14,728 bases of DNA, from positions 1-14,728 of the forward strand of contig JAYEOM010000060.1 in NCBI GenBank assembly GCA_034722955.1, read 5' to 3'. Shown here one piece after another: positions 50-14,728 of this stretch (the stretch's first letter is position 1; each line of letters starts with the position of its first letter). Position numbers and translations under genes: made by a program. The stretch comes from Campylobacterota bacterium (GTDB taxonomy: Bacteria > Campylobacterota > Campylobacteria > Campylobacterales > Sulfurovaceae). The notes under the pieces were generated by a model, which was not told the origin of the DNA, ran no database searches, and saw only the letters and a list, made by a program, of their open reading frames with translations.

Positions 50-2788
50 TTATGAAAAGATGTATAGTGAATCCCTGACACTCTCTATATCAAATGTCTC
101 TACACTATCTTGATATGCTATATCATCCAGCTCTATACTATACTCATGCTCCATATCACTTTTTAGATCTGTCAATATATCCAGTTTGTGCATCTGCACA
201 AATGTATCTTTGGTAGCTTCAAGAAGAGTATCTATATCACAGGCATGAGTCCCAAATGAGTCATGTATAGTGGCAAAAGAGTCTGTACCTTTTTTTTGTG
301 ACTCCAGAACAGTTAAAAACAGATGAGTGGCATCTAGCGAGTGGATAAAGTTGGGGGATATGCCTTTGGTCTGTTCTGTGTGATCTATCTTGTCTGTAGG
401 TATTCTGATCTGTATAGAGTATTTTTTGCCATTGTATTTTGTGGATATCTTATCTATCTTGGTCTTGAACTCTTCTTGTATCACCTCTAGTCCTATGATG
501 GGTGTCTTCCATCTCAACTCTCTGTTTTGTTTTGCTGACTTATTGGCTATCTTCTTCATCCACTCTTTATAGGTGCTCGATGATGATAGCTCTTGGCTCA
601 TAGCCTCCCCTATCTTGTCCCTTAGATATATAGAGATAGCATCTGTAGTCGCTTCATCCCATTGCAGTTTTTCTTGCAGATTGTCATTCAAATAATCTTT
701 TATCTGTGATAGTTTTGCATCGGCTCCTGCCCCATAAACTTCTGTCATGACATTTTTCTTGGTCAAATCCCTGCTAATCTCCAGATAGATTTCATCTATA
801 TATTTTTTCTCTATCCTTATCTCCGTTTTATCTTTTTTGATGATATATCCACTATCTCTATCTATCAGCTCTTTTGTCTTGATGGCAACATCTTTATAGA
901 TATCATTAGGTGTTTCTTGATCTTTTGATGGCAAAACATTGACTTTTGATGCTCCCTTTTTGTCTCGCAGGAGTGCAGTGATATGCTGGAAGCCATTGTT
1001 TGAGCCATCCATAGCTATAGGCAGAGCTGACTTGAAGTTGTCAGGATCTTCGATAAATCCTCTATACTCATAAGCAAATGCTAGAAAGCCATAGGGTTTA
1101 TCTGCCTTCCGCAAAAATGTACTATCAAATCTATCTCTGTTTGCAAAAATTCCAAGAATATCATCTTTGTGTATATCTATCCAATTGACCCTGTCATCAA
1201 AAGATATCTTGTCCTCGCCATAGAGATTTGCTCCGTGGATCTTGAACCACCTCTCACCACTCTCTCCTAGAGGCTTCTTGATAGCAAATCTCAGCAGTGC
1301 TTTTGCCAAATCGTCTCCTTGGGGATTGAGTAGTGGCTGTGCAGGGTATGTTCTGCCTCTGAAGTCTACCTGCCATACGAAGTATATCTCATCATATTTT
1401 GCATATTTTTTGGCTTTTTCGATAGTGAGTTTATCGATATTGATTTCACATTCGAGTGTACCAATGCCAGTCAGCACCTCCTGATGTGCCTCTCTCGCTC
1501 TTTTTTGTTCCTGATATTTCTCTAGGATATTTTCGTCTATCTTCTCCTCGGAAAACCCCATCTCTTCGAGCAGCTCTTTTTGTCCTTGAAGTTTTGTCTT
1601 TATCTCTTTGAGGGAGCTGTATCTTTTTTCTTTCTCTTTTTTCAGCTCTTTTATCCTCTCTTTTGCTTGCTCTTTCAGCAGCTTTAGATGACTCTCTATA
1701 TCATCGATCAGATCACTGTTTATCTGCCATTTGGTATCTTGTATTATATTGATGGCCTTGAGCAGTTTGGGGCTAAATGTCTCCCTGCGACTCTCTACAT
1801 TTTGTCCGTCTCTTTTGGTCTTTGATTTCATTATAGATAGGTCGTATTTTGGCGAGCTATCCAAATCCCTGAGAAACCCTCCATCATCTATAGTCGTCCA
1901 TGGAGTCGGGGGAACAATCATAGGTTCAAATGATGGTGGTGTATATTTGAGTATCGCATTGTATATGTTTCGGCTCTCTTTTTCAAATGCTTTGCTAAAT
2001 TTATAGTTCAGAAAGCCCCCATCTTTTTCGTACTCTTCTAAGATACCCAAATTTATCAATTCGGCAAAGAGCTCTATGGCTACATCTATCTCTGTATCGT
2101 TTTCCCAAGCCTCTATCTTGAGCTTGTCTCTTTTGAATCTAAAGGCGACATGTTCAAAGAGAGACTCTGCTATAGTATTGGTGATCCCTTGCCTGCTTGT
2201 AGAGTTGTCATCTTCGCTATGTAGATCTTTGACTAGTAAACCAGATAGAGTCTGGAGTGTTATCCATGCCACTTCACCACTGCTGAGCAGTATGGTGGCT
2301 AGAGACATAACCTGCTCTTTCTGCTTGAGCCCCAGCTCCTCTATACTGCTCTGTAGATCTACATTTTTATCTTTGAGTATTTCAAAAGTTCTCTTGATGA
2401 CAGATGCTTCGACTCTACCCTCTCTTTTGACTTTTTTAGGATTGAGACCGTAGATGGATTTGTCATTTACCTTGTCTTGCAATCCTATGGCAATATTTTT
2501 GGCTTTTTCTTTGAGATTGTAGTCTGGCAAACTCTCCTCGCCATACAGTTTGCATATCTCGCTTTTGTATCTATCGCTGATAAATATCTTCTCTATTACT
2601 TTGGGCATCTTTTTATTTCTCAGGGTACAGATCTCATCTGAGAGTCTCTTGAGATATATTTTGCTGAAGGTATCTTTGGTTGATCGTTTTTGATTTTTTG
2701 ATTTTTTGTCAATGATCTTTTGCATTTTCTCTTCAAAATCTTCGATAGTCTGTGATTGTAGTTTTAGCTGTTTTTCTCGCAGATTCAT
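50..2788 (-). CDS. T7/T3/SP6-like single-subunit DNA-dependent RNA polymerase (about 912 aa)
   Basis: All hallmark motifs are present in order: PMIVPPTPW, DFRGRTYP, LNPQGDDLAKALL, WFKIHGANLYG-DK, ADKP-FLA, motif A PIAMDGSNNGFQH, DIY, motif B RDLTKKNVMTEVYGA, PNFIHSLDATHL and motif C IHDSFGTH. Start moved from 2824 to the ATG at 2788 (MNLREK), which has AAAAGGT 7 nt upstream. Confidence 0.96.
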   Translation of the reverse strand: MNLREKQLKLQSQTIEDFEEKMQKIIDKKSKNQKRSTKDTFSKIYLKRLSDEICTLRNKKMPKVIEKIFISDRYKSEICKLYGEESLPDYNLKEKAKNIAIGLQDKVNDKSIYGLNPKKVKREGRVEASVIKRTFEILKDKNVDLQSSIEELGLKQKEQVMSLATILLSSGEVAWITLQTLSGLLVKDLHSEDDNSTSRQGITNTIAESLFEHVAFRFKRDKLKIEAWENDTEIDVAIELFAELINLGILEEYEKDGGFLNYKFSKAFEKESRNIYNAILKYTPPSFEPMIVPPTPWTTIDDGGFLRDLDSSPKYDLSIMKSKTKRDGQNVESRRETFSPKLLKAINIIQDTKWQINSDLIDDIESHLKLLKEQAKERIKELKKEKEKRYSSLKEIKTKLQGQKELLEEMGFSEEKIDENILEKYQEQKRAREAHQEVLTGIGTLECEINIDKLTIEKAKKYAKYDEIYFVWQVDFRGRTYPAQPLLNPQGDDLAKALLRFAIKKPLGESGERWFKIHGANLYGEDKISFDDRVNWIDIHKDDILGIFANRDRFDSTFLRKADKPYGFLAFAYEYRGFIEDPDNFKSALPIAMDGSNNGFQHITALLRDKKGASKVNVLPSKDQETPNDIYKDVAIKTKELIDRDSGYIIKKDKTEIRIEKKYIDEIYLEISRDLTKKNVMTEVYGAGADAKLSQIKDYLNDNLQEKLQWDEATTDAISIYLRDKIGEAMSQELSSSSTYKEWMKKIANKSAKQNRELRWKTPIIGLEVIQEEFKTKIDKISTKYNGKKYSIQIRIPTDKIDHTEQTKGISPNFIHSLDATHLFLTVLESQKKGTDSFATIHDSFGTHACDIDTLLEATKDTFVQMHKLDILTDLKSDMEHEYSIELDDIAYQDSVETFDIESVRDSLYIFS

Positions 2789-2805
2789 TGCTTTACCTTT
2801 TTGAT

Positions 2806-2827
2806 AGTTTGCACATATAGACAAAAG
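2806..2827 (+). repeat. 22-bp direct repeat copy 1, AGTTTGCACATATAGACAAAAG; candidate phage-type RNAP promoter
   Basis: Identical to 2878-2899. The CACATATA-G core resembles the T7 CACTATA-G and SP6 GACACTATA-G initiation regions. The repeat is seen directly; promoter function is inferred. Confidence 0.75.
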
Positions 2828-2877
2828 AGTCTCGTCTTAGATTTTAGATTATATCTATATTTAGTTGAGATTTCTAA

Positions 2878-2899
2878 AGTTTGCACATATAGACAAAAG
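2878..2899 (+). repeat. 22-bp direct repeat copy 2; candidate phage-type RNAP promoter
   Basis: Identical to 2806-2827, offset by 72 bp. Confidence 0.75.
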
Positions 2900-2941: not shown

Positions 2942-2995
2942 ATGCTATGTGAATTAGTATGCATTATAGTTAAAGAGATAGAAGAGAACCTTTAA
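2942..2995 (+). CDS. Mini-ORF A, 17 aa (MLCELVCIIVKEIEENL)
   Basis: Strong SD AAAGGAG just upstream of ATG 2942; stop TAA at 2993-2995. No recognisable homology. Confidence 0.4.
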   Translation: MLCELVCIIVKEIEENL

Positions 2996-3008: not shown

Positions 3009-3049
3009 TGCCTGTGATGGCTAGAGATACTCGAAACAAAGAGTACTCA
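3009..3049 (+). repeat. 41-bp repeat R1 copy 1 (GCC-TGTGAT-GGC hairpin plus TACTC-N8-GAGTA hairpin)
   Basis: 38/41 identical to 3307-3347 by eye alignment. Confidence 0.85.
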
Positions 3050-3078: not shown

Positions 3079-3165
3079 ATGATACCGATTCCAGTATGTA
3101 TACAGATTGTGACTGTTGTTGCAACAGCTGTAGCAGGGAAAAAGTTGTTGTCGGATAAAAAGTAA
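3079..3165 (+). CDS. Mini-ORF B, 28-aa hydrophobic peptide (MIPIPVCIQIVTVVATAVAGKKLLSDKK)
   Basis: SD AAAAGGA upstream of ATG 3079. About 19 hydrophobic residues followed by a lysine-rich tail, as in single-pass membrane peptides. Confidence 0.55.
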   Translation: MIPIPVCIQIVTVVATAVAGKKLLSDKK

Positions 3166-3177
3166 GGCTTATGCCTT

Positions 3178-3200
3178 TATGTGTAGCTTGAGATAGCTAT
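3178..3200 (+). repeat. 23-bp repeat R2 copy 1 (TAGCT-TGAGAT-AGCTA hairpin)
   Basis: 21/23 identical to 3590-3612. Confidence 0.8.
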
Positions 3201-3227: not shown

Positions 3228-3284
3228 ATGCTGAAATTAGAAAAACTCACAACCGTTGTGCTGCCTCCGGTTCTATGGGTGTAG
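3228..3284 (+). CDS. Mini-ORF C, 18 aa (MLKLEKLTTVVLPPVLWV)
   Basis: Strong SD AAAAGGAG upstream of ATG 3228. Its start context (TACA-AAGGAG...AATGCT) mirrors mini-ORF A. Confidence 0.4.
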   Translation: MLKLEKLTTVVLPPVLWV

Positions 3285-3306: not shown

Positions 3307-3347
3307 TGCCTGAGATGGCTAGAGATACTCAAACCAAAGAGTACTCA
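3307..3347 (+). repeat. 41-bp repeat R1 copy 2
   Basis: 38/41 identical to 3009-3049. All three differences fall in predicted loops. Confidence 0.85.
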
Positions 3348-3370: not shown

Positions 3371-3583
3371 GTGAGAGTATCGTATCACGCGGGTGAGAGG
3401 TTTTTACAGAGGGTATTCAAGTTTAGAGACTATACCAAAAAGCAGGTTTTAAATGCTATGAAATTGATAGAGAGAGATATATCCCATATCGAGTATCGCC
3501 ATTCAAACTTTGTACTGCCCTCTTTTCCCAACTACAGATGTATCGTAGCGGACAATACTTTAGTGACCATCGTACCCAAATGA
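3371..3583 (+). CDS. Small protein D, 70 aa, possible RelE/BECR-fold (DUF4258-like) RNase
   Basis: GTG start with SD AAAAGGA. The N-terminal S-x-HA-x-ERF-x-QR and C-terminal LVTI strand are a pattern seen in small BECR-type proteins. The fold call is an inference. Confidence 0.65.
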   Translation: MRVSYHAGERFLQRVFKFRDYTKKQVLNAMKLIERDISHIEYRHSNFVLPSFPNYRCIVADNTLVTIVPK

Positions 3584-3589: not shown

Positions 3590-3619
3590 TATGCGTAGCT
3601 TGAAATAGCTATTTTTTTT
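3590..3619 (+). terminator. R2 copy 2 hairpin (TAGCT-TGAAAT-AGCTA) followed by T8; candidate intrinsic terminator of the mini-ORF array
   Basis: 5-6 bp stem with a T-tract at 3612-3619. It overlaps the stop codon and last Lys codons of the convergent minus-strand gene, so the T-run may partly reflect coding. Confidence 0.5.
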
Positions 3620-5426
3620 GCATTTTCAAGATCTCATCTCTAAACTCCAATATTTCACTTTTGCTGAAACTATGCTCATCAAAACCAAAAAATCCAAACC
3701 CACCCCCATAGTAGGCTTTTTGCTCCTCTACTATATGTCGAAACATTGTGACTATCTTCTCTATACCATCTCCATAGTAGTTGAGTTTGCTGTCGTTGTA
3801 GATCAGTATATTTTTACCATAGAGTCTGTCGGCTATAGGTGAAAACTTATCTGTGAATGCCTTGACTACTGTAGTATTTCCCTCTTTTTTTTGCATTTTT
3901 ATAGATTCTATCGCCAATTGCTCATCTTTTTTGGTAACTCCTTGGGCTTTTCTATCTTTTTTGCGTATCTCATCTATCTCGTTTTGGCTTGCACCAAACT
4001 CTCTCATAGCTGGTATGTATCCGCTGTCATTGAGGGCTATGAGCATCTCCTGCCTGCTCAGTTGTACCCCTAGCGTATCAGCTACCTGTTCCAGTGAACT
4101 CTTGTTTTTTTGTTTCTCATTGTGGTGGTCTATAGTTAGATAGTTTGCCGGTAGTTCTATATCTTCTATGAGTTCTATACCTATATATAGATAGTTGTTT
4201 TTGAGTCGGTCGCTATAGCTACCGAGCTTTGCCCCCCATGATAGAGAGTGATCATAGTAGACTTGAGCATATCTATCTAGCAGCTTTTTGATAGTTCTCA
4301 TCTCCAGGTCATATCCGCCGAGTAGAAAAACTCTCTTTTTTAGTTGGAAAAATGGTGATATCTTTTTGTGAAATTTCTTTGTACCAAAGGTATGGGCATT
4401 GTATATCTCTATACTATTTGTGATCGCTCTGAGTTTTGCATTTTTGCCAAACAGTGTTTTGGGTTTTTGTATTTTGTGGCTATTGTCAGGATATATATTG
4501 ATGATCATATTTTTGCTGTCATCACCGAAGTATCCCAGCAGGGAGTCGCTCTTGTAGATGATATCCTGAGCTGATATATTGTCTCCGAGTTTGCACTCTA
4601 TGGTATAGATATGGTTCTCCTTGATAGCCAGTATATCAAACTCGTTGAATATCTCTATATCATAGGGATCATCCTCTGCAGAGTCAAAGAGCAGTACCGC
4701 ACCCACTTTAATATCGTCAAAATCGTAACACAAAAGGCTAAGATAGGTAAACTCCTCAAACAGCGTACCAAAATAACTGATATTTCTCAATGCCCTGTAG
4801 TCACTCCCTATCATACCTAGATCTATAAGAGCCTCTATCTGCCCAGGGTATGCAGAGGCTATCGCCTGTAGTCTGTTCTGGTGCAGGTATCTCCTGATCC
4901 TAAAGAGGATATTGAAGTCGCCAAAGAGCAGCAGCAGTGACTTTTTTTTGCTCAATATCTTCGCTTTATCTATCTCATTGGTGAGTTGATAACCCAGAGA
5001 GAGTACAAAGTCATCTACCATCATGTTGTGGGTGATAGTGTGACTGCCAAATCCACTCTCATCTATCAGATTGTAGCTATTTTCGAACTTGTCATAGGCT
5101 ACTATCTTGCCCCCATTGTGTAGGATAGACCCAGAGAGTACGACTAGCAGTGCGGTATCTGCATTGGTGGCATTGAGATAGAGTTCTGTAGTATCGATAC
5201 CATTGATATGGTTTTGGATGGAGAGCATATCTGCCTTGGAGTCCTCGTCTACCTCTATGAGCTCCACCTCTTGTGCTAGTGATACTATCCATCTCTGTAT
5301 CTTGAGTGCATAGTGCTTCTCTTTGTCGTCGTAGATGAGTATATGTTTGGTTGTTCTATCTATAAATTCAAAGATGATGGGTACAAGCTCGTGGAGGTCT
5401 CTGCTGATGATAGTGATGAGTGTCAT
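3609..5426 (-). CDS. Fusion of a Card1/Can2-like CARF + PD-(D/E)xK nuclease (DUF1887-like) with a C-terminal NrN-like DHH phosphodiesterase (about 605 aa)
   Basis: N-terminal Rossmann/CARF-like start MTLITIIS...LYLNATNAD. Nuclease motifs GTLFEEF and NEFDILAIKENHIYTIECKLG. From about 4340 a second domain: RVFLLGGYDLEM, LSWGAKL, IDHH, SSLEQVA, NDSGYIPAM, DRKAQGVT. The ATG at 5426 is preferred because the 5630 start would overlap corA. Confidence 0.75.
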   Translation of the reverse strand: MTLITIISRDLHELVPIIFEFIDRTTKHILIYDDKEKHYALKIQRWIVSLAQEVELIEVDEDSKADMLSIQNHINGIDTTELYLNATNADTALLVVLSGSILHNGGKIVAYDKFENSYNLIDESGFGSHTITHNMMVDDFVLSLGYQLTNEIDKAKILSKKKSLLLLFGDFNILFRIRRYLHQNRLQAIASAYPGQIEALIDLGMIGSDYRALRNISYFGTLFEEFTYLSLLCYDFDDIKVGAVLLFDSAEDDPYDIEIFNEFDILAIKENHIYTIECKLGDNISAQDIIYKSDSLLGYFGDDSKNMIINIYPDNSHKIQKPKTLFGKNAKLRAITNSIEIYNAHTFGTKKFHKKISPFFQLKKRVFLLGGYDLEMRTIKKLLDRYAQVYYDHSLSWGAKLGSYSDRLKNNYLYIGIELIEDIELPANYLTIDHHNEKQKNKSSLEQVADTLGVQLSRQEMLIALNDSGYIPAMREFGASQNEIDEIRKKDRKAQGVTKKDEQLAIESIKMQKKEGNTTVVKAFTDKFSPIADRLYGKNILIYNDSKLNYYGDGIEKIVTMFRHIVEEQKAYYGGGFGFFGFDEHSFSKSEILEFRDEILKMQKK

Positions 5427-5486: not shown

Positions 5487-6767
5487 ATGCCACAAGATAT
5501 ATATAGTTGCCATACTTTTATGTTGCCATTTATCATAGAGTGCTATGATCACAAGAGAGAGATCATCGAAGCCAAAAGCTGGCAATATAAGGAACACAAA
5601 GACAACTATAATGAGATAGCATATTTTCATAGCTTCTTCAAAGATAGTATGTTTACCAAAGATAAGGATGCAAACTCTTCATTTTATACCAAAGATGAGT
5701 ATAGGGATAGTCAGTTTGTCATCAGCAGATCAAAAGAGTATGAATTAAATCTTAAAAGTGTAAACCTTAGAGTGTTTAAGACAGGTGTAGGGATATTATC
5801 TTTTCATATAGAAAATAGATCATATTCAGATATCAAAGATATCCTGGAAATCAATGACTATGGCAGGAGAATCTATCCCGAATATTTAGATGAAAAACTC
5901 CAATGCACTCTTGTCCCAAACTATATTCGATTAAAAGATATAAAAGAAGATTTTAGATACGATCAACAACCCACAAAAATAAAACTCTCAAAAATCATAA
6001 CAGAGTTTCTACCAGAAGAGAAAATAAGAACAGCCATAGATGATAGAATGTTCGTTATAAGTTTTTACAAAAACAGTAGTTTTTCAAATGATCTGAAAAG
6101 AGATTATATGAAAAATAGTAAGTGGTATGAGTATATTTTCATAGATGGAAATGGTCTCAATGTCCAAAATCGTGAAATGCAAAACAATCTAGTCAAAAAA
6201 GCCACCTATCCCAGATGGCAGGGCTATGGTACTATGTATGGTATCAGCAGATACTCTTTTGTATGTGTGGCAGATGAGAGTGAGTTTATCAGAGAGACTG
6301 TTGAGGTGCATATGCAGACGATCTATTTTCAGATGTTTTCTCTACTCTTGATGCTGAGGGCTACTATATTGAAGTTCTCCAAAGAGGTGAGTGATATAGC
6401 TAAAGAGATAGACACTAAAGGCACAGATATTAAAGTCGAAGATCTATACAAACGATATATACAGTTCGTAAATAGCTTCTACTTCAGAGAGATAACAGCC
6501 AAAGACCAAGGTCTAGAGCTATATGATCAAGCTAGAGAGATACTGAGGATAGATAGTGACATCAAAGACTTGGACAATGAGATAGGGGAATTGCATAGAT
6601 ATGTCTCAATGATAGAGGGCAATGAGAATACCAAAAAAATGGATAGATTGCAATATTGGGGTTTTCCTCTGCTCTTTTTGTCTCTTATCACTGGTTTTTT
6701 TGGTATGAATATATTCCCACAAGGCTTTTTAGACACCATATCCAATTGGCTTAAAGCGTTATTTTAA
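5487..6767 (+). CDS. corA: CRISPR type III-associated CorA-family membrane effector
   Basis: Large soluble N-terminal domain (IDDRMFV, TYPRWQGYGTMYGISRYSFV, YFREITAKDQGLELY), then a TM helix ending in the CorA signature ITGFFGMN. First gene of the cmr operon. Confidence 0.88.
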   Translation: MPQDIYSCHTFMLPFIIECYDHKREIIEAKSWQYKEHKDNYNEIAYFHSFFKDSMFTKDKDANSSFYTKDEYRDSQFVISRSKEYELNLKSVNLRVFKTGVGILSFHIENRSYSDIKDILEINDYGRRIYPEYLDEKLQCTLVPNYIRLKDIKEDFRYDQQPTKIKLSKIITEFLPEEKIRTAIDDRMFVISFYKNSSFSNDLKRDYMKNSKWYEYIFIDGNGLNVQNREMQNNLVKKATYPRWQGYGTMYGISRYSFVCVADESEFIRETVEVHMQTIYFQMFSLLLMLRATILKFSKEVSDIAKEIDTKGTDIKVEDLYKRYIQFVNSFYFREITAKDQGLELYDQAREILRIDSDIKDLDNEIGELHRYVSMIEGNENTKKMDRLQYWGFPLLFLSLITGFFGMNIFPQGFLDTISNWLKALF

Positions 6768-6776: not shown

Positions 6777-7787
6777 ATGAACAAAAGTAAATTTAAGGCA
6801 GAGTTCACACTGAAACAGCACACCCCAATCATCCATTTCCAGAGTGGTCAGAACGGAGCAACGCTGAGGGCTACAGAGTTGAAACCGAAGTTTGACAGGT
6901 TTTTATTGCACAATGTTGAAGATATCCCATTCATCAAAAATGCCAATGGACACAAATCATTGGATTATAAAGTAACTATTGCAATAAATGGGCAAGGGGT
7001 TAAAGGCACTCCCAACAACTTTTTGTATTTTGCCAATAATTCAGCTCAAGGAGATGAATTTAAATACACTATCAAAAGTCAGAGTGTTATCGTTACTTTC
7101 TTTTCATACAGAACTGATTTGATAGAATCAATAAATAGATATTTTAATGATTTTTTACTGATTACAAACTTTGGATCCAGAAGTACAAAAGGGTATGGTA
7201 GTTTTGGTAAAAGTATAGAGAATGCTGAAACTGTATTAAGAAAATATTATCCAATTGTCTTCAAGATAACAAATGTTGGCGACATAAGTAAATGGGAAGT
7301 TAAAGTTGACACTATTCACAAAAAATTAAAATCTGGAATCAATTTCATACAATATCATAAATCTTTACTTTTCCAATACATGTGTACCCAAAACATTAGA
7401 TGGGAAAAGAGAAATATCAAAGAGAAGTTTTCAGTTTTAGCAACAGGAAAGCCCCCGATAGACTGCGATACAAGAGGTCAATATAGATATATCAGAGCGA
7501 TGTTGGGAACTGCCGGTATCAATGAATATGACAGAGGTAACAAAACTGTAACGATAGATGGTGGAGAGATAGAGAGGTTTGCCTCTCCAATTATTTATAA
7601 AATTATTGGAAACAGCATATATCTTCTAGGAGATAAAAGTTATGAAAAGATAATGGGTAAACCTTTTATTTTTCAGTATAAACAAAGCAGTTTCACCATT
7701 AATACACCATCCAAAAGTGAATTTGATTTGCATAAATTTTTAAAGTTTGTAGAGAAAAATGACAATATAATCAGTGAGGTAAAATAG
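6777..7787 (+). CDS. cmr1: Type III-B RAMP Cmr1 (B. fragilis-like)
   Basis: LKQHTPIIHFQ...ATLRATELKPKFDRFL N-terminus, G-rich loop NFGSRSTKGYGSF, ERFASPI; lies directly before cas10. Confidence 0.85.
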   Translation: MNKSKFKAEFTLKQHTPIIHFQSGQNGATLRATELKPKFDRFLLHNVEDIPFIKNANGHKSLDYKVTIAINGQGVKGTPNNFLYFANNSAQGDEFKYTIKSQSVIVTFFSYRTDLIESINRYFNDFLLITNFGSRSTKGYGSFGKSIENAETVLRKYYPIVFKITNVGDISKWEVKVDTIHKKLKSGINFIQYHKSLLFQYMCTQNIRWEKRNIKEKFSVLATGKPPIDCDTRGQYRYIRAMLGTAGINEYDRGNKTVTIDGGEIERFASPIIYKIIGNSIYLLGDKSYEKIMGKPFIFQYKQSSFTINTPSKSEFDLHKFLKFVEKNDNIISEVK

Positions 7788-9056
7788 ATGACCTACATAG
7801 CACTAACCATAGGACCGATATACAAGACACTGGCAAATGCCAAGAATCCCAAAGAGCTTTTTGCAAGTAGCTATATCTTTAGCTATATTATGAGAAATAT
7901 CATCAAAGAGTTCAAGAGTAGAGAGTTTGTCATCCCCTATATAAAAGATGACTCTATCTTTGATGAGAGCAGTAAAGTGGGTCTTTTTCACGACAGATTT
8001 ATTTTTAAGTCACAAGAGCAAGAGAGTGATATCTATAAACTAAAAAGAGTCATTGAAAATATCTCAAAAGATACAGCATCCAAGCTAGGGTTGAATCATA
8101 AAGATGTAGAAGAGTATCTACAGATAAATTATTTGGCAAAAGAGATAGGTGATGAAAATCCCATAGAAGCACTCAGCCCCTATCTAGATACAAAAGAGCT
8201 TTTTTATCAACTCTCTTCTAGTGATAGCTTTATCTCATCTCTTAGCAGAAAAAAGGGAGACAGAGATAATTTTCTTACAGCCAATAAAAATATCATAGAT
8301 GATTTGAAGAAGCTTTCGTATCATAAATACTACTGTGTCGTGCATGCCGATGGTGACAAGATGGGCGAAGCTATCAAAGATAAAGCCAATATAGAAAATA
8401 TCTCCAAAAGTCTTTTTGGTTACTGTATGGAGTCAAACCATCTCATACGAGAGTTTGGAGGTCAAACCATCTTTGCAGGGGGTGATGACTTGATGTTTAT
8501 AGCACCTACGATCTCAAGAGATAGAACAAAAACTATTTTTGACTTATGCGAAGATATATCACAAAGTTTCAACATAGATAAGGCAACACTGAGTTTTGGT
8601 ATCAGTATAAACTATATAAAATATCCACTCTATGAAGCAGTAGAAAACTCAAGAGAGTTACTTTTTGACAAAGCAAAAAATGAGCAGAGAAACAACATAG
8701 CCTTCAATATCACAAAACACAGCGGTCAAAGCTTCAGTACTGTGATACACAAAGGTGATGATGAAATTTACAGTAAATTTTTAGCTTTTACCTCAAGTGT
8801 AAATGACAAAGACAATATCGGTAACTTCCTAGACTCAATACATCACAAGATAGCTACATATGAAACCACATTGTCAAATATCAAAAATGACAAAACCAAA
8901 CTAACAAACTTTTTTGTTAACTACTTCAATAAAGATGAGCATAAAAATAACAAAGAGTTTTTTGATCATTTAGTGGATTTCATCTATGTAGCAACCATAG
9001 AACAAGTCTATACAACACTTAGATTTATCAAGTTTATTCAAGGAGATAAGTCATGA
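7788..9056 (+). CDS. cas10: Cas10/Cmr2, compact, no HD domain, intact GGDD palm
   Basis: YIALTIGPI...ELFASSYIFS, YCVVHADGDKMG, IFAGGDDLMF, TLSFGISI..KYPLYEA. Confidence 0.95.
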   Translation: MTYIALTIGPIYKTLANAKNPKELFASSYIFSYIMRNIIKEFKSREFVIPYIKDDSIFDESSKVGLFHDRFIFKSQEQESDIYKLKRVIENISKDTASKLGLNHKDVEEYLQINYLAKEIGDENPIEALSPYLDTKELFYQLSSSDSFISSLSRKKGDRDNFLTANKNIIDDLKKLSYHKYYCVVHADGDKMGEAIKDKANIENISKSLFGYCMESNHLIREFGGQTIFAGGDDLMFIAPTISRDRTKTIFDLCEDISQSFNIDKATLSFGISINYIKYPLYEAVENSRELLFDKAKNEQRNNIAFNITKHSGQSFSTVIHKGDDEIYSKFLAFTSSVNDKDNIGNFLDSIHHKIATYETTLSNIKNDKTKLTNFFVNYFNKDEHKNNKEFFDHLVDFIYVATIEQVYTTLRFIKFIQGDKS

Positions 9057-9376
9057 TAGATATTGAAAAAATAAAAAAAGATATTCCTGTAATGCTGAAA
9101 TCTTTAGATATAAACAAAATCATCCTTTTTGGCAGTTATGCTTATGGAACCCCTCACAAAGACAGTGATTTGGATATCTGTATAGTTGAAGAAAAGGTAG
9201 TGTCAAAAATGCAAGAAAAGAGAGAGATCAGAAAACTTCTTGGCGAGATAGATATGCCAATGGATATTATTCTAGTAGATGAAGATTACTATCAAACTCA
9301 TAGTGATAAAAATTGGATAAATACTGCCCTATATGATGCCAGACAAAAAGGAGAGATTTTATATGAAAAAGAATGA
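9053..9376 (+). CDS. Minimal nucleotidyltransferase (MNT) antitoxin-like protein
   Basis: IILFGSYAYG...DSDLDI Pol-beta motif plus a third Asp in MDII; 107 aa. Confidence 0.9.
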   Translation: MIDIEKIKKDIPVMLKSLDINKIILFGSYAYGTPHKDSDLDICIVEEKVVSKMQEKREIRKLLGEIDMPMDIILVDEDYYQTHSDKNWINTALYDARQKGEILYEKE

Positions 9377-9767
9377 TATAAAAAATAGTGCCGATCTATT
9401 TTTGTATAAAGCAATAATTGATTTCAATACTGCAAAAGCTATTTTTAAAAGCTTTGAAAATGATGATATTGAGATATATATAGAAAAAATATATTTTGAT
9501 TTGCAGCAAAGCAGTGAAAAGCTTCTCAAAAACCTTCTATCCAAAAATGGTGTAGATGTTCCAAAGATTCACGATATAAAGCAATTAATAAGAGTTTGTG
9601 AAAAAAACAATATCAATCTTATGAGTAGAGTAGAGGTATTGATAGATTTGAGTGATTATGCAGTGGAAGGTCGCTATGACATTATCTGTGATGATATATC
9701 AAATAGTGATCTCTATTTTGAATTGGTAGAACAGTTTATAATATTTGTAAAAGGAGACAAAGCATGA
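9363..9767 (+). CDS. HEPN-domain protein (MNT-HEPN pair)
   Basis: FDLQQSSEKLLK...VPKIHDIKQL...DYAVEGRY fits the HEPN family consensus (F-x-x-QQ-x-x-EK-x-LK...P-x-x-HD...RY). ATG 9363 with a GGAG SD is preferred over 9333. Confidence 0.85.
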   Translation: MKKNDIKNSADLFLYKAIIDFNTAKAIFKSFENDDIEIYIEKIYFDLQQSSEKLLKNLLSKNGVDVPKIHDIKQLIRVCEKNNINLMSRVEVLIDLSDYAVEGRYDIICDDISNSDLYFELVEQFIIFVKGDKA

Positions 9768-10729
9768 GATATCTAGTCACGCTTACACCACTAGAGCCTT
9801 TTCTGTTCGGAGGAGATACGACTTTTGGCAAGAAGGGCGATGAGGAGAAAGGCACCTATCTGGTCAAATCACGGCAATTCCCTCAACAGAGTGCAGTTTT
9901 GGGGATGCTCAAAAAAGAGATCATGACCCAGTCAGGAGTTTTGACACGCAAAGTGAGAGGTGAATGGGTAGATAAGCAGAAGAAAAAAGAGGCAGAAGCT
10001 CTAGTAGGAGTTGAAAAATTTGATATAGGCTCTGAAGGTTTACAGGATTTTGGTATTATCAAATCTCTTGGTTCGATCTTTTTGATACAGGAGCAAAAAC
10101 AATATATCAAAAAAGTAGATATTGATTCTTATACTTACAAAGATGGCTTACTAGAAAGCTATAATCCAGAAATAGATATTTATGATAATTTTGTAGAGAC
10201 AAAAACAAGTGAAAAATTATCATCAGGCGATATCTTCAAACCCATAGAGCAGACAGGCAACAAGACAGGAGGAGAGGATGACTCACTCTTCAAAAAAACC
10301 TCCTATCTACTAAAATATGATTTCAAGTTTGCATTTTATCTTGAGTGCGAGTATGAGTTGAGAGACTCCATCATCCATCTAGGAGCAGACAGAAGCAGCT
10401 TCAAGCTGGAGATCAGAGAGGATAATGACAGTTTGGAGTATAGTGATGAAAATGGCTATTTGACACTCATGAGCGATGCCTATATCACTCTACCTATCAA
10501 AGAACATTGTGTTTTTGCTATTACTAGTGAGATAAGTTTCCAGAGCTTACAGAACAAAAAGCATGCGACCAAGAGTAATGCATTTCAAAAAAGTACAAAA
10601 ATATTTCTCTATGAGAAAGGTTCAGTTTTTATAAACCCATCGGATGAACTAGTAAAAAACCTAAACAATAAAAACTGCCAACGGATCGGTTACAATAAAC
10701 ACACTTACGAAAAAGGACAAAATAGATGA
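9764..10729 (+). CDS. cmr3: Cmr3 (Cas5-family RAMP)
   Basis: YLVTLTPLEPFLFGG, S..FPQQSAVLGML, LGADRSSF, LYEKGSVF, IGYN; position in the operon. Confidence 0.9.
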   Translation: MRYLVTLTPLEPFLFGGDTTFGKKGDEEKGTYLVKSRQFPQQSAVLGMLKKEIMTQSGVLTRKVRGEWVDKQKKKEAEALVGVEKFDIGSEGLQDFGIIKSLGSIFLIQEQKQYIKKVDIDSYTYKDGLLESYNPEIDIYDNFVETKTSEKLSSGDIFKPIEQTGNKTGGEDDSLFKKTSYLLKYDFKFAFYLECEYELRDSIIHLGADRSSFKLEIREDNDSLEYSDENGYLTLMSDAYITLPIKEHCVFAITSEISFQSLQNKKHATKSNAFQKSTKIFLYEKGSVFINPSDELVKNLNNKNCQRIGYNKHTYEKGQNR

Positions 10730-11574
10730 AAACAGAACTATACACCATAGAGACACTCAGCAACCTCCATGTAGGAGCAGGGGATATCAACTTTGATGTC
10801 ATAGACAACCAAGTGCAGAGAGATGCCATCACCAACCTGCCCAATATCAATAGCAGTAGTCTAAAGGGTGCCTTTAGAGAGCATTTCACACAGTATGATA
10901 GTGATGGCAAAAAGCTGGATGATACACTGATGGTCAAGTATATCTTTGGAGGTGCCAATGATGATGAGAACTCTCATGCTACAGGAGCCTATAGTTTCTT
11001 TGAGGCACAGCTACTTACTCGACCAGTACGAAGCGATGCCAAGCCATACTTCAACGCTACAAGCCCCTCAGTCATCAAGAGTCTGTTAGATACGATAGAA
11101 AATTTCGATATAGAGTTTAATAAAGAATTAACACAAGCACTTACAAACCTTTCAAAGTTGAATCCTCAAAAAAATAATCCTATTATCTTTGAAGATATTC
11201 CAAAGACCAGACTCGAAGATGATCCAGCCAAATATCAAAACTTTGATGTCTCGAAACTTACAGAATTTTTAGGTGTTGATCTTGCACTCTTTGCAGATAG
11301 TGATTTCGCAGAATTAGACCTGCCTGTACTAGCTAGAAATGCACTCGAAAATGGAGTGAGCCAAAACCTCTGGTATGAAGAGGTCGTACCCAAAAAGTCC
11401 AAGTTTTTCTTCTGCATCGGCAAACCAAATATAGACAATACAGACCCAAAAGATTATGATCAGAAGATCAAAGGGTTTGAAAACAGATTTGGCACAGAGG
11501 GTCACAAAGTACAGTTGGGAGCCAACAAATCCATAGGGTATGGATTTAGTCTGGTCAAAAAGGTATCGTTATGA
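10726..11574 (+). CDS. cmr4: Cmr4 (Cas7-family backbone RNase)
   Basis: LHVGAG...VIDNQVQRD...PNINSSSLKGAFRE, ARNALENGVSQNLWYEEVVP, QLGANKSIGYG. Confidence 0.95.
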   Translation: MKTELYTIETLSNLHVGAGDINFDVIDNQVQRDAITNLPNINSSSLKGAFREHFTQYDSDGKKLDDTLMVKYIFGGANDDENSHATGAYSFFEAQLLTRPVRSDAKPYFNATSPSVIKSLLDTIENFDIEFNKELTQALTNLSKLNPQKNNPIIFEDIPKTRLEDDPAKYQNFDVSKLTEFLGVDLALFADSDFAELDLPVLARNALENGVSQNLWYEEVVPKKSKFFFCIGKPNIDNTDPKDYDQKIKGFENRFGTEGHKVQLGANKSIGYGFSLVKKVSL

Positions 11575-11957
11575 GCAAGAAGAGCATAGAGAGGTATATA
11601 CCCAAGGCGATAAAGGTGTTGGATGCTACTTTTGATGACGGTGTTATCCCATCAGCTTACAATGGATATATATCTTCATTTGGTGCGAGTGTGATGCAGA
11701 GTGGACTGCTACCTACGCTAGCACTATTTGAAAATACCAATGCCTCCACAAAGGAGAACAAAGAGTATCTATCGTATCTCATAGTCAATATCCTAAGAGA
11801 CAACAGAGATGATGTTTCACTCCTGAGAGAGGTATTGGTTAGAGAAGAGCGTGGAGAGAGTCGCAACCATCTCAAAGAGCAGATACTAGATATATCTATA
11901 GCCATCAAGTTAAGTATCAGAACTTTCAAGCTCAAAAAAGGTGATAAAGATGAGTAA
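11571..11957 (+). CDS. cmr5: Cmr5 (Cas11 small subunit)
   Basis: 128 aa, helical, YNGYISSFGASVMQSGLLPTLA; lies between cmr4 and cmr6. Confidence 0.88.
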   Translation: MSKKSIERYIPKAIKVLDATFDDGVIPSAYNGYISSFGASVMQSGLLPTLALFENTNASTKENKEYLSYLIVNILRDNRDDVSLLREVLVREERGESRNHLKEQILDISIAIKLSIRTFKLKKGDKDE

Positions 11958-12900
11958 TCCAAATCTAGGTTGGCTCTTTTATAAGGATTATTTCACCGCT
12001 ATAAGAGACTGGACCAATCCAAAAGCAAATGAAAAGGATATATCCAGAAAAGTAGATGAGTTGATAAAAAAAACTCCAACCATAAAAGAGACAGAGATAC
12101 TAGGCTCTACACACTTCAAAGCTACCACTACTTATCCAGGACTGCTGCTAGGCAGCGGCAATGCACATGAATTGCCAGGTATTGAAGGTCAAGCCATATT
12201 GGGCTTTCACTTCGACTACACCAGCGGATTGCCCATCATCCAAGGCTCATCTATCAAGGGAGTGCTGAGAAGTGCGTTCAGACATTGGGAATATATAGCA
12301 GAGATCGGGGGTGAGACTTTAGTCTCACTGATAGATGTAGAGAACTTGGAAAGAGAGATATTTGACAACGGTGATATATTTTTCGATGCACAGATCATCA
12401 GTGGCGGCAGGATACTAGGCGATGACTACATCACACCACACGGTGACGATCTACTCAAGAATCCCATACCCCTGAGATTTATCAAAGTCCTGCCCAATGT
12501 GACATTTAGGTTTGATTTTGAGTTGAGTGACGGGATTTTGGAAAAGGATAAAAAAATCATACTCTTTACTAAAATAATAGAAGATTTAGGAGTAGGAGCA
12601 AAAACCAATGTAGGGTATGGGAAGTTTGATATAGAGGATATGGAGCAACAGATAAAAAAGGAGCAACAAAAACTCAAGAGAGAAGAGGCGGAGAGTAGAG
12701 TAACTAGTGCTAATGATGACTACAGTAAAGCCATCGCACTAATAGATGCCACTATAAAATTGGACAATAAGCTTTTTAAAAATTTACGAGATGAAGTTGA
12801 ACTAGATAGCCATGAAAAGAGCAAGGTCAAAGAACATTTTGATAGCAAATTTGAGGGTGATAGTAAATTTAAAAACAGGATACACAAGATATTAACTTAA
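11950..12900 (+). CDS. cmr6: Cmr6 (RAMP)
   Basis: NLGWLFYK, YPGLLLGSG, GFHFDYTSGLPIIQGSSIKGVLRS, DYITPH, NPIPLRFIKV, GVGAKTNVGYG. ATG 11950 is preferred over GTG 11941. Confidence 0.93.
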   Translation: MSNPNLGWLFYKDYFTAIRDWTNPKANEKDISRKVDELIKKTPTIKETEILGSTHFKATTTYPGLLLGSGNAHELPGIEGQAILGFHFDYTSGLPIIQGSSIKGVLRSAFRHWEYIAEIGGETLVSLIDVENLEREIFDNGDIFFDAQIISGGRILGDDYITPHGDDLLKNPIPLRFIKVLPNVTFRFDFELSDGILEKDKKIILFTKIIEDLGVGAKTNVGYGKFDIEDMEQQIKKEQQKLKREEAESRVTSANDDYSKAIALIDATIKLDNKLFKNLRDEVELDSHEKSKVKEHFDSKFEGDSKFKNRIHKILT

Positions 12901-13227: not shown

Positions 13228-13648
13228 AAGGATTTTTTTTGATGCCAATATTTTCAACGATATATTTGATGAAAACAGAGTCCATCATAACTCTAGCAAA
13301 GAGTCTTTGCTCTATGCTCTGCAAAATGATATAAGATGCTGTACCAGTTGTGATATAGTTACCAATATCTACTACATAACTGCCAAATACACTTCAAAAA
13401 ATCAAGCATTGGATGCCCTTGACTACCTAAAAGAGATAGTGGAGATCATCCCTTTTTCTTACGAAGAACTCACCATTGCGATAGATCTGATGAAGAGAGA
13501 CGGTGAGTATAAGGATATGGAGGATACTATACAGTATATTTTAGCTATAGAGCAGCATTGTGACTTGATCATCTCAAATGATAAACGATTTGTCTCTAAA
13601 GAGATAGAGTGCGTAAGCAGTGATGATTTTGCAAATTCTCGCAGATAG
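13217..13648 (+). CDS. vapC: PIN-domain (VapC-like) toxin
   Basis: IFFDANIFND, DMEDTIQY, IISNDKRF acidic PIN motifs; 143 aa. Confidence 0.88.
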   Translation: MKIRRIFFDANIFNDIFDENRVHHNSSKESLLYALQNDIRCCTSCDIVTNIYYITAKYTSKNQALDALDYLKEIVEIIPFSYEELTIAIDLMKRDGEYKDMEDTIQYILAIEQHCDLIISNDKRFVSKEIECVSSDDFANSRR

Positions 13649-13656
13649 AAAAGTCA

Positions 13657-14728
13657 ATGTATACAAAACCTCTCTCCTACATCACCCTCCCGTCAGCTCT
13701 CAAGGATGCCTACGAGGAGATCAGCAAGCTCTCCAGTGGACTTGATGAGGTGAGCTATGCAGAGTTCGAGAGGGAGCTTGGCAAAAATATAGCACAACTA
13801 TCACAAAGACTCCAAAGCGGACTCTACTCCCCAGAACCACTCAAAAAGATAGAGATAGACAAGCCAAACTCTGATGAGAAGCGCCCCATAGCCCTATCTG
13901 CCATCAAAGACAAGATAGTCCAGAGAGTGCTATATAAAAATCTAAATCCATACTTTGACAAGCTCTTCTCTGACAAATCCTACGCCTACAGACCTGACAA
14001 ATCTACCATAAAAGCGATCAATAGAACTACGGATTTCCTGAACAAAAAGAGACTGCATATCGTCAAGACCGATATCGACGATTTTTTTGAAACTATAGAC
14101 CATGATATACTTCTAGAGATACTCGATACTCATATCTCAGACAAAAGCATCACGCGGCTCATATCACTCTTTGTGCAGGTGGGAGGGTTTCAAAACTTTG
14201 ACTATAGTAGCCATCTGCAGGGCATCCATCAGGGGGATATACTCTCCCCGCTCCTCTCCAATATCTATCTGGATGTTATGGATAGATTTCTAGAGAAGCA
14301 TGATATCGCTTTTGTGAGATATGCCGATGACTTTGTAATGCTCTTTAAGAGCAAAAATGAAGCCTATGGTACCCTCAAAGAGTTGAGAAAATTTCTCAAA
14401 ACCATAAAGCTGACTCTCAACAAAGAGAAGACCAGCGTCACACATATCAGTGATGGTTTTGACTTTTTAGGTATAGAGTTCAAAGGCAGAAACAGGCATA
14501 TCCAAAACGAAAGACTCCAAAGATCCGTATCCAAGATAGCCCAACTCTCCAAGACAAAGCTGGGATTTGCAGCGTTTACCAAAGAGCTAAACAGCTATCT
14601 ACTGTCGCTCAAAAACTACTATCTCAAGATACTCACACCCAATGCCCCACAACACAAGCTACTCCAGGATGCCCTCATAGCTACCCTATCACACAAAGTT
14701 TATCTCTCCAAAAAGTCAAAAGAGATCA
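13657..14728 (+). CDS. Group II intron-like CRISPR-associated reverse transcriptase, 3'-truncated by the window edge (probably RT-Cas1)
   Basis: Hand translation from ATG 13657 stays open to the window end: SSGLDEVS (RT0), IDKPNSDEKRPIAL, KDKIVQ, SYAYRP, KTDIDDFFETIDH, GIHQGDILSPLLSNIYL, FVRYADDF (YADD at 14320-14331), FDFLG. The Cas1 part is not visible and is inferred from context. Confidence 0.92.
   Translation, partial: MYTKPLSYITLPSALKDAYEEISKLSSGLDEVSYAEFERELGKNIAQLSQRLQSGLYSPEPLKKIEIDKPNSDEKRPIALSAIKDKIVQRVLYKNLNPYFDKLFSDKSYAYRPDKSTIKAINRTTDFLNKKRLHIVKTDIDDFFETIDHDILLEILDTHISDKSITRLISLFVQVGGFQNFDYSSHLQGIHQGDILSPLLSNIYLDVMDRFLEKHDIAFVRYADDFVMLFKSKNEAYGTLKELRKFLKTIKLTLNKEKTSVTHISDGFDFLGIEFKGRNRHIQNERLQRSVSKIAQLSKTKLGFAAFTKELNSYLLSLKNYYLKILTPNAPQHKLLQDALIATLSHKVYLSKKSKEI

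Follow-up and report, generated by a model that had tools for sequence, protein, structure and literature searches.

A T7-like RNA polymerase with its own candidate promoters in type III-B CRISPR loci of Campylobacterota: a probable private transcription unit

Type III CRISPR systems use small molecules to relay their signal to nucleases, proteases, channels and transcription factors. Can2 and Card1 are reportedly CARF-PD-(D/E)xK effectors of such systems, CARF-RelE (Cami1) is said to use a RelE-type toxin as type III output, and CreTA reportedly consists of small toxins embedded in cas loci. Among the closest described systems are the CorA/NrN type III-B systems, which signal with SAM-AMP (S-adenosyl methionine-AMP), as Chi et al. 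(2023; PMC10600005) showed, and Crf4 is named with PD-(D/E)xK in the 2025 classification (PMC12669027). The stretch analysed here, termed the window, takes up all 14,728 bp of contig C60 from a Campylobacterota genome (G000), and it carries a T7-like single-subunit RNA polymerase (RNAP) beside a type III-B locus of this kind. Comparative genomics of metagenome-assembled genomes (MAGs) and metagenome contigs, drawn from related lineages and habitats, suggests that the RNAP is probably a domesticated T7-type enzyme that forms, together with its own promoters, a private transcription unit within the Cmr/CorA/NrN (SAM-AMP-type) locus, and that it may provide an extra immune output.

The RNAP gene lies at 50..2788 on the minus strand and is assigned by domain and phage-protein profiles, an alignment to T7 RNAP, a structural model and a clade tree. 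Its longest open reading frame (ORF) spans 50..2824 and opens with TTG; translation more likely begins at the ATG at 2788, which follows an AAGGT ribosome-binding site, and this yields 912 amino acids (aa), the same length as the database cluster P0001. The product matches PF00940 (RNA_pol) with E 6.8e-94 and 315.6 bits (cut-off 22) and phrog_414, 'RNA polymerase', with E 1.6e-164, and Pfam RPOL_N reaches 22.7 bits, under its cut-off of 30.1. A profile alignment to T7 RNAP (Protein Data Bank (PDB) entry 1aro; E 2.4e-107) covers T7 residues 260-883 and displays motif A (DGSnnGfQH), motif B (RSlTKknVMTevYG), motif C (HDSFGT) and the C-terminal YFFS, and the catalytic residues D594, K677, Y685 and D843 are invariant in 27/27 RNAP family sequences. 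The AlphaFold model (pLDDT 85) is matched by Foldseek to the T7 RNAP-promoter complex 1cez over 884 columns (E 5.7e-34, TM 0.64/0.68), mitochondrial RNAPs being the next-best solved matches after T7. An earlier interpretation of this DNA made from its letters (the sequence-only reading) had described a full-length single-subunit RNAP with motifs A, B and C intact, and the 1aro alignment, the invariant residues and the 1cez fold all bear this out. The N-terminal 220-400 residues are unmatched by phage profiles, and neither the Pfam scan nor the structure search found a signal-sensing domain on the RNAP itself. Some clade members are long forms of 1,070-1,130 aa, with about 130 aa inserted between motifs A and B. 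Genome G006 holds two clade RNAPs, one at 76% identity (C373, L003/L006) and one a 1,075-aa long form (C175, L004).

The linkage of this RNAP family to CRISPR genes recurs well beyond the window. A total of 169 loci, taken from one genome per species (13 loci), from JGI metagenomes (the best 80 of at least 560) and from viral and genome sources, were screened by tblastn with marker proteins from the window, locus L010 and phage loci, the gene calls in these loci being the author's own ORF picks. At least one CRISPR-module marker is present in 21 of the 26 loci with a family RNAP, and 18 of them carry a CARF nuclease, NrN, CorA or Cmr marker; phage single-stranded DNA-binding protein (SSB), primase-helicase, DNA polymerase (DNAP) or portal genes occur in none. 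Among the 143 loci with other RNAPs the corresponding counts are 0, 0 and 111, and G197, G379, L018 and L024 are contrast cases that carry phage markers. The five family loci without a CRISPR marker are contigs of 2.1-5.0 kb, and PADLOC and Pfam scans of the called ORFs confirm the marker identities. These counts speak for the suggestion, made in the sequence-only reading, that the RNAP could be a dedicated component of the defence locus. The linkage persists at RNAP identities down to about 28-34%, and the bacteria that carry the module are a group from vents and brines.

The RNAP, the CARF-PD-(D/E)xK nuclease, NrN, CorA and the cmr genes remain neighbours in at least five different gene orders and at many sites in chromosomes. 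In order A (the window, L007 and L008), cmr and corA share one strand, and the opposite strand bears CARF-nuclease-NrN, a backward-facing cassette and the RNAP. Order B, the commonest (L010, L011, L012, L014, L016, L112, L114, L120 and L131, partly also L015 and L017), comprises the CARF nuclease and RNAP, an opposite-strand cassette, an nrn-corA fusion, cmr1-6 and RT-cas1 (RT, reverse transcriptase); here the CARF-nuclease gene overlaps the RNAP start by 4-13 nucleotides (nt) in L010, L011 and L016. The RNAP ends 4 nt ahead of corA on the same strand in order C (L113, L167), the CARF nuclease follows 13 nt after the RNAP in order D (L117), and order E (L118) consists of cmr genes, cassette and RNAP. 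The outer flanks are ordinary chromosomal genes that differ by locus (purL-mnmE-yidC-rnpA; rplU-mdh-fabH; pyrD; uvrC; hisB-lptA-PBP2; thiE-accD-gltDB-recO-aroB; cobS; pyrF-acs), and in relatives the module borders on housekeeping genes at its RNAP end. No tRNA gene was found in the window or at the module borders in seven loci, the one exception, in L117, being a tRNA-Ser some 4 kb past the nuclease gene.

Two kinds of additional neighbour were observed at the RNAP. A protein with AAA-ATPase_like (PF09820) and PDDEXK_9 domains adjoins the family RNAP in L014 (120-1670), L114 (4419-6104) and L126 (4019-4333); in L014 it occupies the usual place of the CARF-PD-(D/E)xK nuclease and may represent a second kind of PD-(D/E)xK partner. 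Insertion sequence (IS) genes abut the RNAP end in L109 (2496-4335; an IS605 OrfB/TnpB-like gene and a resolvase-type transposase) and in L012, where a transposase fragment lies at 4-300 in one of the loci that have no CARF nuclease.

The RNAPs linked to these loci also group together by descent. A word-indexed protein search returned 26 relatives, of which 18 (P0002-P0019) are 39-77% identical and all unnamed or 'hypothetical'. An exhaustive profile search gave 10,308 matches; the top 23, which score at least 496 bits, consist of fragments and of proteins 900-1,132 aa long and mostly align from the first positions of the profile, and those from rank 24 on are 783-938 aa and align mainly at positions 400-904. 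An IMG/VR scan found 73 viral loci, in none of which the best segment exceeded 36% identity. A FastTree phylogeny of 108 rows, with local supports only, was built from locus and database RNAPs after rows more than 90% identical had been removed and the outgroup thinned to every second row (39/77 locus rows, 15/30 representatives). The 49 non-redundant family RNAPs, labelled beforehand, fall on one side of a branch with support 100, opposite 59 phage, metagenome and eukaryote RNAPs, so that the homolog tree proposed in the sequence-only reading sets this clade apart from phage RNAPs.

PF00940 occurs in 4/401 high-quality genomes of the phylum (G000, G197, G379 and G346), and among 60 closer relatives of G000 the RNAP is found only in G006. 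In G197 and G379 an 826-aa RNAP lies within a classic T7-like prophage with gp2.5 SSB, endonuclease, primase-helicase and DNAP, G379 having an integrase fragment as well; G346 has two PF00940 matches, a 3,434-aa open frame and a 644-aa RNAP frame, a pair taken to be N4-like. CRISPR-type CorA is present in 5/401 genomes. All clade RNAPs with enough flank stand in CorA/Cmr loci, and most sampled CorA loci have no RNAP.

The source genome comprises 2.5 Mb in 140 contigs with a completeness of 99.97% and a contamination of 0.61%, and database names assign it to Campylobacterota ('Epsilonproteobacteria'). The RNAP stop codon lies 49 nt from the contig end, and the sequence to its left is outside the window; because the window is the entire contig, this left flank is unreadable. 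As the sequence-only reading had remarked, Pfam, PHROG, PADLOC and tblastn marker searches found no phage structural, replication or integrase genes within the window, an absence which, the window being a whole contig, says nothing on the left flank. Independent Logan contigs extend about 42-55 nt to the left of position 1 and carry the RT side 1,133 nt past the window. In run X1, possibly the source sample itself, one contig spans window positions 1-12627 with one difference, and in run X3 a single contig bridges 2463-3417. In run X2 two contigs meet at 2947-2976, and a 388-nt side contig has the same 30 nt; this break lies immediately upstream of the first leader hairpin and points to strain variation or to a repeat. 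All four Logan runs belong to one study. The junction between RNAP and cassette, given these Logan contigs, is thus not the artefact of a single assembler.

A cassette of 0.8-3 kb, built from the same parts throughout, lies beside the RNAP wherever a locus has enough flank. The window cassette fills the gap between the RNAP start and the nearest CRISPR-associated gene, that for CARF-PD-(D/E)xK-NrN, which measures 820 nt, in line with the 0.8 kb of the sequence-only reading, and it holds repeats and small ORFs on the plus strand. It contains two direct-repeat copies of a promoter-like motif. Copy 1 (TTTGCACATATAGACAAAAG; 2808..2827, plus strand) points into the mini-ORFs and has a predicted start at G2820 by T7 analogy, and copy 2, 72 nt after copy 1 (2880..2899, plus strand), has its predicted start at G2892. 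In the 2.5-Mb genome the motif has two exact copies, both in the cassette, and one chance match with 3 mismatches; no copy was found at the G000 arrays on C43 and C109. The motif is conserved on the cassette strand in L007 and L008, and its form in the window clade is ATTT..AAGT.T..ACATATAGACAAAA, twice per locus. Every cassette unit of order B opens with ATTTTCCCAAGTGGTGACTAAAGAAAGA, and L117 and L118 carry ...GGCGACTATAGAGA and ...GGTGAGTATAGAAAGA, so the motif variants track the RNAP subclades.

These motifs resemble T7 promoters in their cores, written here with a hyphen before position +1. The window core ...ATATA-G resembles the annotated T7 ...CTATA-G, and the core GACTAAA-G differs from the annotated T7 CACTAAA-G at one of eight positions; of the 13 promoters in the T7 record, 6 read CACTATA-G and 5 CACTAAA-G, the shared core being ..ACTA(A/T)A-G (-7..+1). 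With up to 2 mismatches allowed, the 19-nt motif CCCAASTRGTGACTAAAGA has 17 matches in five whole genomes, all in cassettes and on one strand, and 0 elsewhere, the reversed control giving 0 in the same genomes; none lies upstream of the nrn-corA, cmr or RT genes. For the shorter motif of orders B and D, 38 matches fall within cassettes on the cassette strand and 1 on the opposite strand; a further 9 lie in other parts of the loci, and the control loci (1.61 Mb) contain 42. Matches to sigma-70 promoters and terminators over 1-5700 do not exceed those in shuffled sequence (19 vs 17.8 and 4 vs 3.5, respectively).

Behind the motifs lie micro-ORFs of 10-28 aa, each with a ribosome-binding site, whose peptides are conserved between loci with RNAPs only about 30% identical. 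Four families were distinguished: MIPIPxCxQ...GK(K/E)LL (26-28 aa), ...FLPPLxWL (16-23 aa), ..PLCELICIILK (13-17 aa) and MGICICFP.. (10-11 aa), the last of which was not found in the window. Micro-ORF a (2942..2995, plus strand; 17 aa, MLCELVCIIVKEIEENL) is recognised by its ribosome-binding site and reading frame and belongs to the Cys-rich '..CELICIILK' family, with relatives in L008, L009, L010, L011, L014, L016, L112 and L131. Micro-ORF b (3079..3165, plus strand; 28 aa, MIPIPVCIQIVTVVATAVAGKKLLSDKK) encodes a hydrophobic helix with a charged tail of the 'MIPIP' family, conserved in at least 13 loci, and micro-ORF c (3228..3284, plus strand; 18 aa, MLKLEKLTTVVLPPVLWV) is of the '..FLPPLxWL' family, conserved in nearly all cassettes.

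The last gene of the cassette (3371..3583, plus strand) encodes a small conserved protein of 70 aa with an HAxERFLQRV... motif, defined by alignment, tblastn and a structural model. The family (70-77 aa) is 51-80% identical in 8/8 aligned loci, is found by tblastn in 19/26 family loci and has 231 database clusters. In the sample of 401 genomes it appears at full strength only in the RNAP-bearing genome, being absent from the four CorA-positive genomes without RNAP. None of 8/8 members matches Pfam even at E up to 10, which leaves no RelE/ParE/HigB membership by sequence; PHROG gave no match, PDB sequences none below E 0.66, and the protein atlas only unnamed Campylobacterota clusters, with leads below 0.9. 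No longer, fused forms were seen among 8,000 candidates, which is weak evidence. The model (pLDDT 90.7) has helices at 5-15 and 23-37 and strands at 46-49, 52-60 and 63-69 (alpha-alpha-beta-beta-beta). Most entries at the top of its fold lists are PfiT, HigB, RelE, ParE, colicin D and CdiA-CT toxins, with Foldseek E 0.6 at best and VIA Z 4-5 (to ParE, RelE and colicin D), so a RelE/ParE-like fold is a lead from the model rather than a result.

A conserved RNA element is interspersed among these genes. A two-hairpin leader, P1 (GCC-TGTGAT-GGC) followed by P2, occurs at 3010..3048 (plus strand; minimum free energy -13.8 kcal/mol, z -3.27) and again at 3308..3346 (plus strand; repeat and fold scans); a variant hairpin at 3183..3200 (plus strand), TAGCT-TGAGAT-AGCTA, keeps the P1 loop with compensatory stem changes. 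A hairpin of the same family followed by eight T at 3595..3620 (plus strand) forms a terminator-like cassette end, overlapping the stop of the convergent CARF-NrN gene, and a hairpin and T-run ending is also present in L008 and L110. In B-type units the hairpin GCC-TGAGAT-GGC stands about 10 nt after the promoter motif and is followed by a second, bulged hairpin, and compensatory stem variants of the leader hairpin include GTC/GAC, GGC/GCC and AGCT/AGCT. The hairpin motif is kept in 17/19 cassettes; it occurs in cassettes 64 times on the cassette strand and 0 times on the other, and 5 occurrences lie outside cassettes, compared with 77 in the 143 control loci (1.61 Mb). Across 36 units, chosen by promoter and position and not by hairpin, 86.3% of cells are paired vs 71.9% in shuffles, with 38 double-sided changes vs 13.2, a level reached by 0/500 shuffles; slid controls are 20-49% paired, and, units within one locus being related copies, these figures overstate independence. 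Single-sequence folds reproduce the two-hairpin structure. Rfam gave 0 matches at the gathering score over the window and 0 at E up to 1 over 2780-3640. The hairpin was also considered as a CRISPR repeat or mini-array and rejected: it has in common with the G000 repeats only a ...GAAAC end, and its copies lie about 150-340 nt apart with ORFs between them.

The CRISPR genes of the window begin with a fusion of CARF, PD-(D/E)xK nuclease and NrN (DHH) phosphodiesterase (3609..5426, minus strand), identified by PADLOC (CARF4--CARF_PDDEXK 1.2e-42, DHH_CorA 3.1e-73), a PDB match and alignment. Its NrN part matches the solved NrN 9lq9 (E 3.6e-51) with the DHH motif kept, and its nuclease motif E..DD..NEFD..ECK, containing the catalytic D and ExK, is invariant in 13/13 sequences. 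The longest ORF starts at 5630; alignment places the start at M69 (position 5426), the extra 68 N-terminal residues occurring in no homologue and overlapping the corA start, and from 5426 the divergent genes are 60 nt apart. The CRISPR-associated CorA-like membrane protein (5487..6767, plus strand) is supported by PADLOC CorA (2.8e-113) and weakly by Pfam CorA (8.1e-4). By PADLOC and NCBIfam, the cmr operon (6777..12900, plus strand) comprises Cmr1 (6777-7787; 1.2e-70), a 422-aa Cas10 (Cmr2) with GGDD kept (7788-9056; Cas10b 1.1e-57), a 107-aa MNT nucleotidyltransferase (9053-9376) between cas10 and cmr3 that pairs with a 144-aa HEPN protein (9333-9767), Cmr3 (9764-10729; 9.2e-130), Cmr4 (10726-11574; 3.9e-44), Cmr5 (11571-11957; 2.9e-4, under its cut-off) and Cmr6 (11941-12900; 3.3e-23). 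An RT of the CRISPR-associated (RT-Cas1) kind follows at 13657..14727 (plus strand; PADLOC RT 3.5e-80, Cas1_IIIb 1.2e-61, RVT_1 5.8e-38) and is cut by the contig end. By this gene content the window locus is of the CorA/NrN kind of type III-B, and SAM-AMP would be its expected signal.

Among solved structures, Cas10 is best matched by 9lq5_B (E 8e-37), with GGDD aligned. The window protein has 422 aa vs 600 aa in that chain, of which the alignment omits residues 114-234; Cas10 proteins of relatives have 425-452 aa, and the L012 gene is split (380 + 87 aa). The MNT-HEPN insertion between cas10 and cmr3 is also present in L008 (2571-3294). The interval between cmr6 and the RT gene contains, at 12991-13648, a 78-aa ORF that shares 11 nt with the gene of a 143-aa PIN-domain protein, and the two have the look of a VapBC-type toxin-antitoxin pair. 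A repeat scan found no CRISPR array in the window. Arrays of G000 are located at contig ends on C43 (16522-17071) and C109 (38-352), with repeats ending ATTGAAAC, and three further Cas1 matches occur in the genome (on contigs including C71 and C106), one of them in a 750-aa open frame beside the C109 array. Regular repeats on C28, C80 and C86 appear to be coding or other tandem repeats and were rejected as CRISPR. The 11 spacers of the C43 and C109 arrays show nothing beyond chance 13-19-mers against the cassette, the genome and the loci, and self-targeting was rejected.

The motifs are candidate promoters of the RNAP, with their start sites and use inferred. Because a promoter-specific type of polymerase always travels with strictly local, co-varying promoter-like motifs, the RNAP is likely to transcribe what lies behind them, namely the micro-ORFs and the small protein. 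The mini-ORF cassette, one of several targets raised in the sequence-only reading, is accordingly singled out by the motifs, since the T7-like elements occur only there and all point into the mini-ORFs. Transcription would begin at about G2820 and G2892, run through 2942-3583 and reach the hairpin and T-run at 3595-3620, and each transcript would carry the conserved two-hairpin leader. As to purpose, an added toxic or dormancy-inducing output independent of host RNAP may tentatively be proposed, because the products resemble small membrane peptides and a protein of RelE/ParE-like kind, and the effector already known from the locus is a channel in the membrane; the RelE/ParE-like protein and the hydrophobic or Cys-rich peptides would then act as an extra toxic or membrane-directed output alongside the CorA channel. 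Such a unit would presumably be independent of the host RNAP and could come into play during phage shut-off.

The CARF-PD-(D/E)xK nuclease is a candidate link from the Cas10 signal to the RNAP, because its gene usually neighbours the RNAP, often in translational coupling with it, and overlaps the RNAP start in the commonest order. It is possible, albeit doubtful, that the polymerase is gated by the second messenger: target recognition by Cmr would elicit the Cas10 signal, a CARF partner would free or activate the RNAP, and a burst of cassette transcripts would follow, bearing the two-hairpin leader and encoding the RelE/ParE-like protein and membrane micropeptides. The module would in that case be a transcriptional amplifier of CRISPR immunity that still works after the phage has shut off the host RNAP. 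A complex prediction for L010 RNAP residues 1-600 with the CARF nuclease scored 0.00, was made without controls and is evidence neither way.

Several observations weigh against a domesticated RNAP serving as an immune output. Promoter use, start sites and independence from host RNAP are all inferred from sequence. All loci come from MAGs and metagenomes of related habitats and lineages, and their counts are therefore not independent events. CorA systems evidently work without the RNAP, which is lacking, along with the small protein, in four of the five CorA-positive genomes of the phylum sample, and three loci with adequate flank (L012, L014 and L118) have no CARF nuclease. One locus, L015, has its RNAP split over two frames at 10025-12612 (678 + 184 aa; 669 aa from the first ATG), as a frameshift or a decayed copy, and this split RNAP still adjoins a CARF nuclease and the small protein. 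For L111 (59% identity) and L167 (96% to L113), whose N-termini are cut, membership in the clade is based on sequence identity only. The type-C loci L113 and L126 show 0-1 matches to the promoter and hairpin patterns, and the micro-ORF peptides are without known relatives. The toxin view of the small protein draws on weak fold matches (Foldseek E at least 0.6, VIA Z no higher than 5.0), and a distant homologue (36% identity, HAAKRFLQRV start) stands alone in genome G154 (C48 3861-4082; L191/L192), between purH, an HU gene and metabolic genes, with no RNAP or CRISPR marker within 14 kb.

The same anatomy could also be explained by a guard or addiction module, in which the RNAP keeps toxin genes transcribed and a labile, host-made antidote restrains them, so that loss of the locus, inhibition of Cas or phage shut-off kills the cell; the module would then serve to shield the CRISPR locus or to back it up, and the Cas10 signal would not be its trigger. 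Such a role fits the finding of no promoter motif or signal-sensing domain on the RNAP itself, the retention of RNAP and cassette in the three loci without CARF nuclease, and the MNT-HEPN and PIN toxin-antitoxin pairs embedded in the same operon. It is nonetheless unlikely: no antidote gene or antisense element was identified, toxicity of the cassette products is only predicted, and the tight, sometimes overlapping coupling of CARF nuclease and RNAP in the commonest order suggests a tie to signalling. Type III targeting requires transcripts of the target and RT-Cas1 takes spacers from RNA, which has a bearing on a proposal of the sequence-only reading, that the RNAP makes RNA substrates for Cmr or RT-Cas1. 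Under this proposal it would transcribe invading or nicked DNA for Cmr detection of silent targets and for spacer uptake, and the RT gene in 8/26 family loci (most others end before that point) and the usual neighbourhood of a PD-(D/E)xK nuclease able to nick DNA would be in keeping with it. The strongly conserved, strictly local motifs, however, point into nothing but the micro-ORF cassette, which is characteristic of an enzyme that is promoter-specific and serves a defined regulon; in five genomes none faces cas genes or lies elsewhere, and 0/11 assembled G000 spacers match the cassette or loci. Such a supply of RNA is improbable.

About equally improbable, or slightly more so, is transcription of the cas operon or of arrays, by which immunity would outlast a phage block of the host RNAP. 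This task would suit a polymerase that stands in a defence locus and does not depend on the host RNAP, and the arrays of these loci are out of view, as neither the window nor most of the loci continue past the RT gene. The proposal is contradicted by the confinement of all 17 motif matches in five genomes to the cassette, and in G000 by a motif with only two copies, both in the cassette and neither at the C43 or C109 array. The last alternative, already named in the sequence-only reading, is a chance neighbour, the remnant of a T7-like prophage or island beside a CRISPR locus. It could be entertained given a contig that ends 49 nt past the RNAP stop with the left flank unseen, an assembly-graph branch at 2947-2976 in one run, and IS elements that abut the module in L109 and L012. 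It is, however, very improbable: the linkage recurs over five gene orders and deep RNAP divergence, the absence of phage genes from all 26 clade loci contradicts it, the true T7-like prophages of the phylum look different (integrase, gp2.5 SSB, endonuclease, primase-helicase, DNAP), and Logan contigs cover 1-12627 and, in another run, 2463-3417. The homologs, in other words, lie mostly in CRISPR-linked loci rather than in prophages or islands devoid of such linkage.

A private transcription unit of this kind, if confirmed, would make an orthogonal transcription machine an accessory of type III immunity and thereby an output of a novel type. It would also be the first case outside organelles in which a cell, here with the gene in a bacterial chromosome, uses a phage-type RNAP for a defined regulon. 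The system is testable, consisting of one polymerase, a promoter of about 20 nt, a leader RNA and a handful of micro-ORFs. It bears on the expression of immune loci during phage takeover, on the partners of CorA/SAM-AMP signalling and on micropeptides in defence, and it would offer new orthogonal polymerase-promoter pairs, in several co-varying variants, along with a conserved RNA motif. A search of open full text, with subscription-only articles outside it, found nothing joining a T7-like or single-subunit RNAP with type III CRISPR, CARF, CorA or defence islands. Such an RNAP is unmentioned in the main texts of Hoikkala 2024 (PMC11229360), Shah 2018 (PMC6546367), the 2025 classification (PMC12669027) and Shmakov 2018 (10.1101/270033) and in one supplement each of Hoikkala 2024 and Shah 2018, although a low-ranked RNAP neighbour could stand in the supplements of PMC12669027 and Shmakov 2018; the term 'RNA polymerase' is likewise unmentioned in Chi 2023 (PMC10600005) and the SAM-AMP lyase paper (PMC12255297). 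Within the literature searched, the parts are known families and the polymerase-promoter-micro-ORF circuit is undescribed as a CRISPR accessory.

Compared with mitochondrial RNAP, the present case is likewise one of a T7-like polymerase taken over by a cellular genome, but it concerns a bacterial host, a tiny local regulon and linkage to an immune locus, with no accessory initiation factors identified. The clade shares with the T7-group phage RNAPs (Autographiviridae gene 1) its fold along some 880 residues, the catalytic motifs A, B and C and a comparable C-terminus, and its cassette motifs have the -7..+1 core of T7 promoters; T7 also has tandem promoters (phi1.1A and phi1.1B) 75 nt apart, followed by the small genes 1.1 and 1.2 beside the polymerase gene. 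Unlike the T7-group enzymes, it forms a separate clade with at most 36% identity to any viral contig match and an N-terminus foreign to phage profiles, and its genes are chromosomal, with housekeeping genes as neighbours and in no case genes for phage replication or structure. The surrounding locus agrees with the systems of Chi et al. 2023 in Cmr1, Cmr3-6, a short GGDD Cas10, CRISPR-type CorA, NrN (separate or fused to CorA) and RT-Cas1; the loci presented there (PMC10600005) are without RNAP, whereas here a CARF-PD-(D/E)xK nuclease, an RNAP and a promoter/micro-ORF cassette are added. As is reported for Can2, Card1 and Crf4, a CARF domain is combined here with a PD-(D/E)xK nuclease, which retains the catalytic D...ExK. 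In contrast to them, the nuclease is fused to NrN (window, L008) or encoded by a gene overlapping the RNAP start, and the locus would be expected, by its likeness to the CorA/NrN systems described above, to signal with SAM-AMP and not with cyclic oligoadenylate. Finally, unlike Cami1 and CreTA, the small protein has neither a CARF domain nor a sequence match to RelE/ParE families, and its control would run through a dedicated polymerase instead of a fused sensor or crRNA-like repression.

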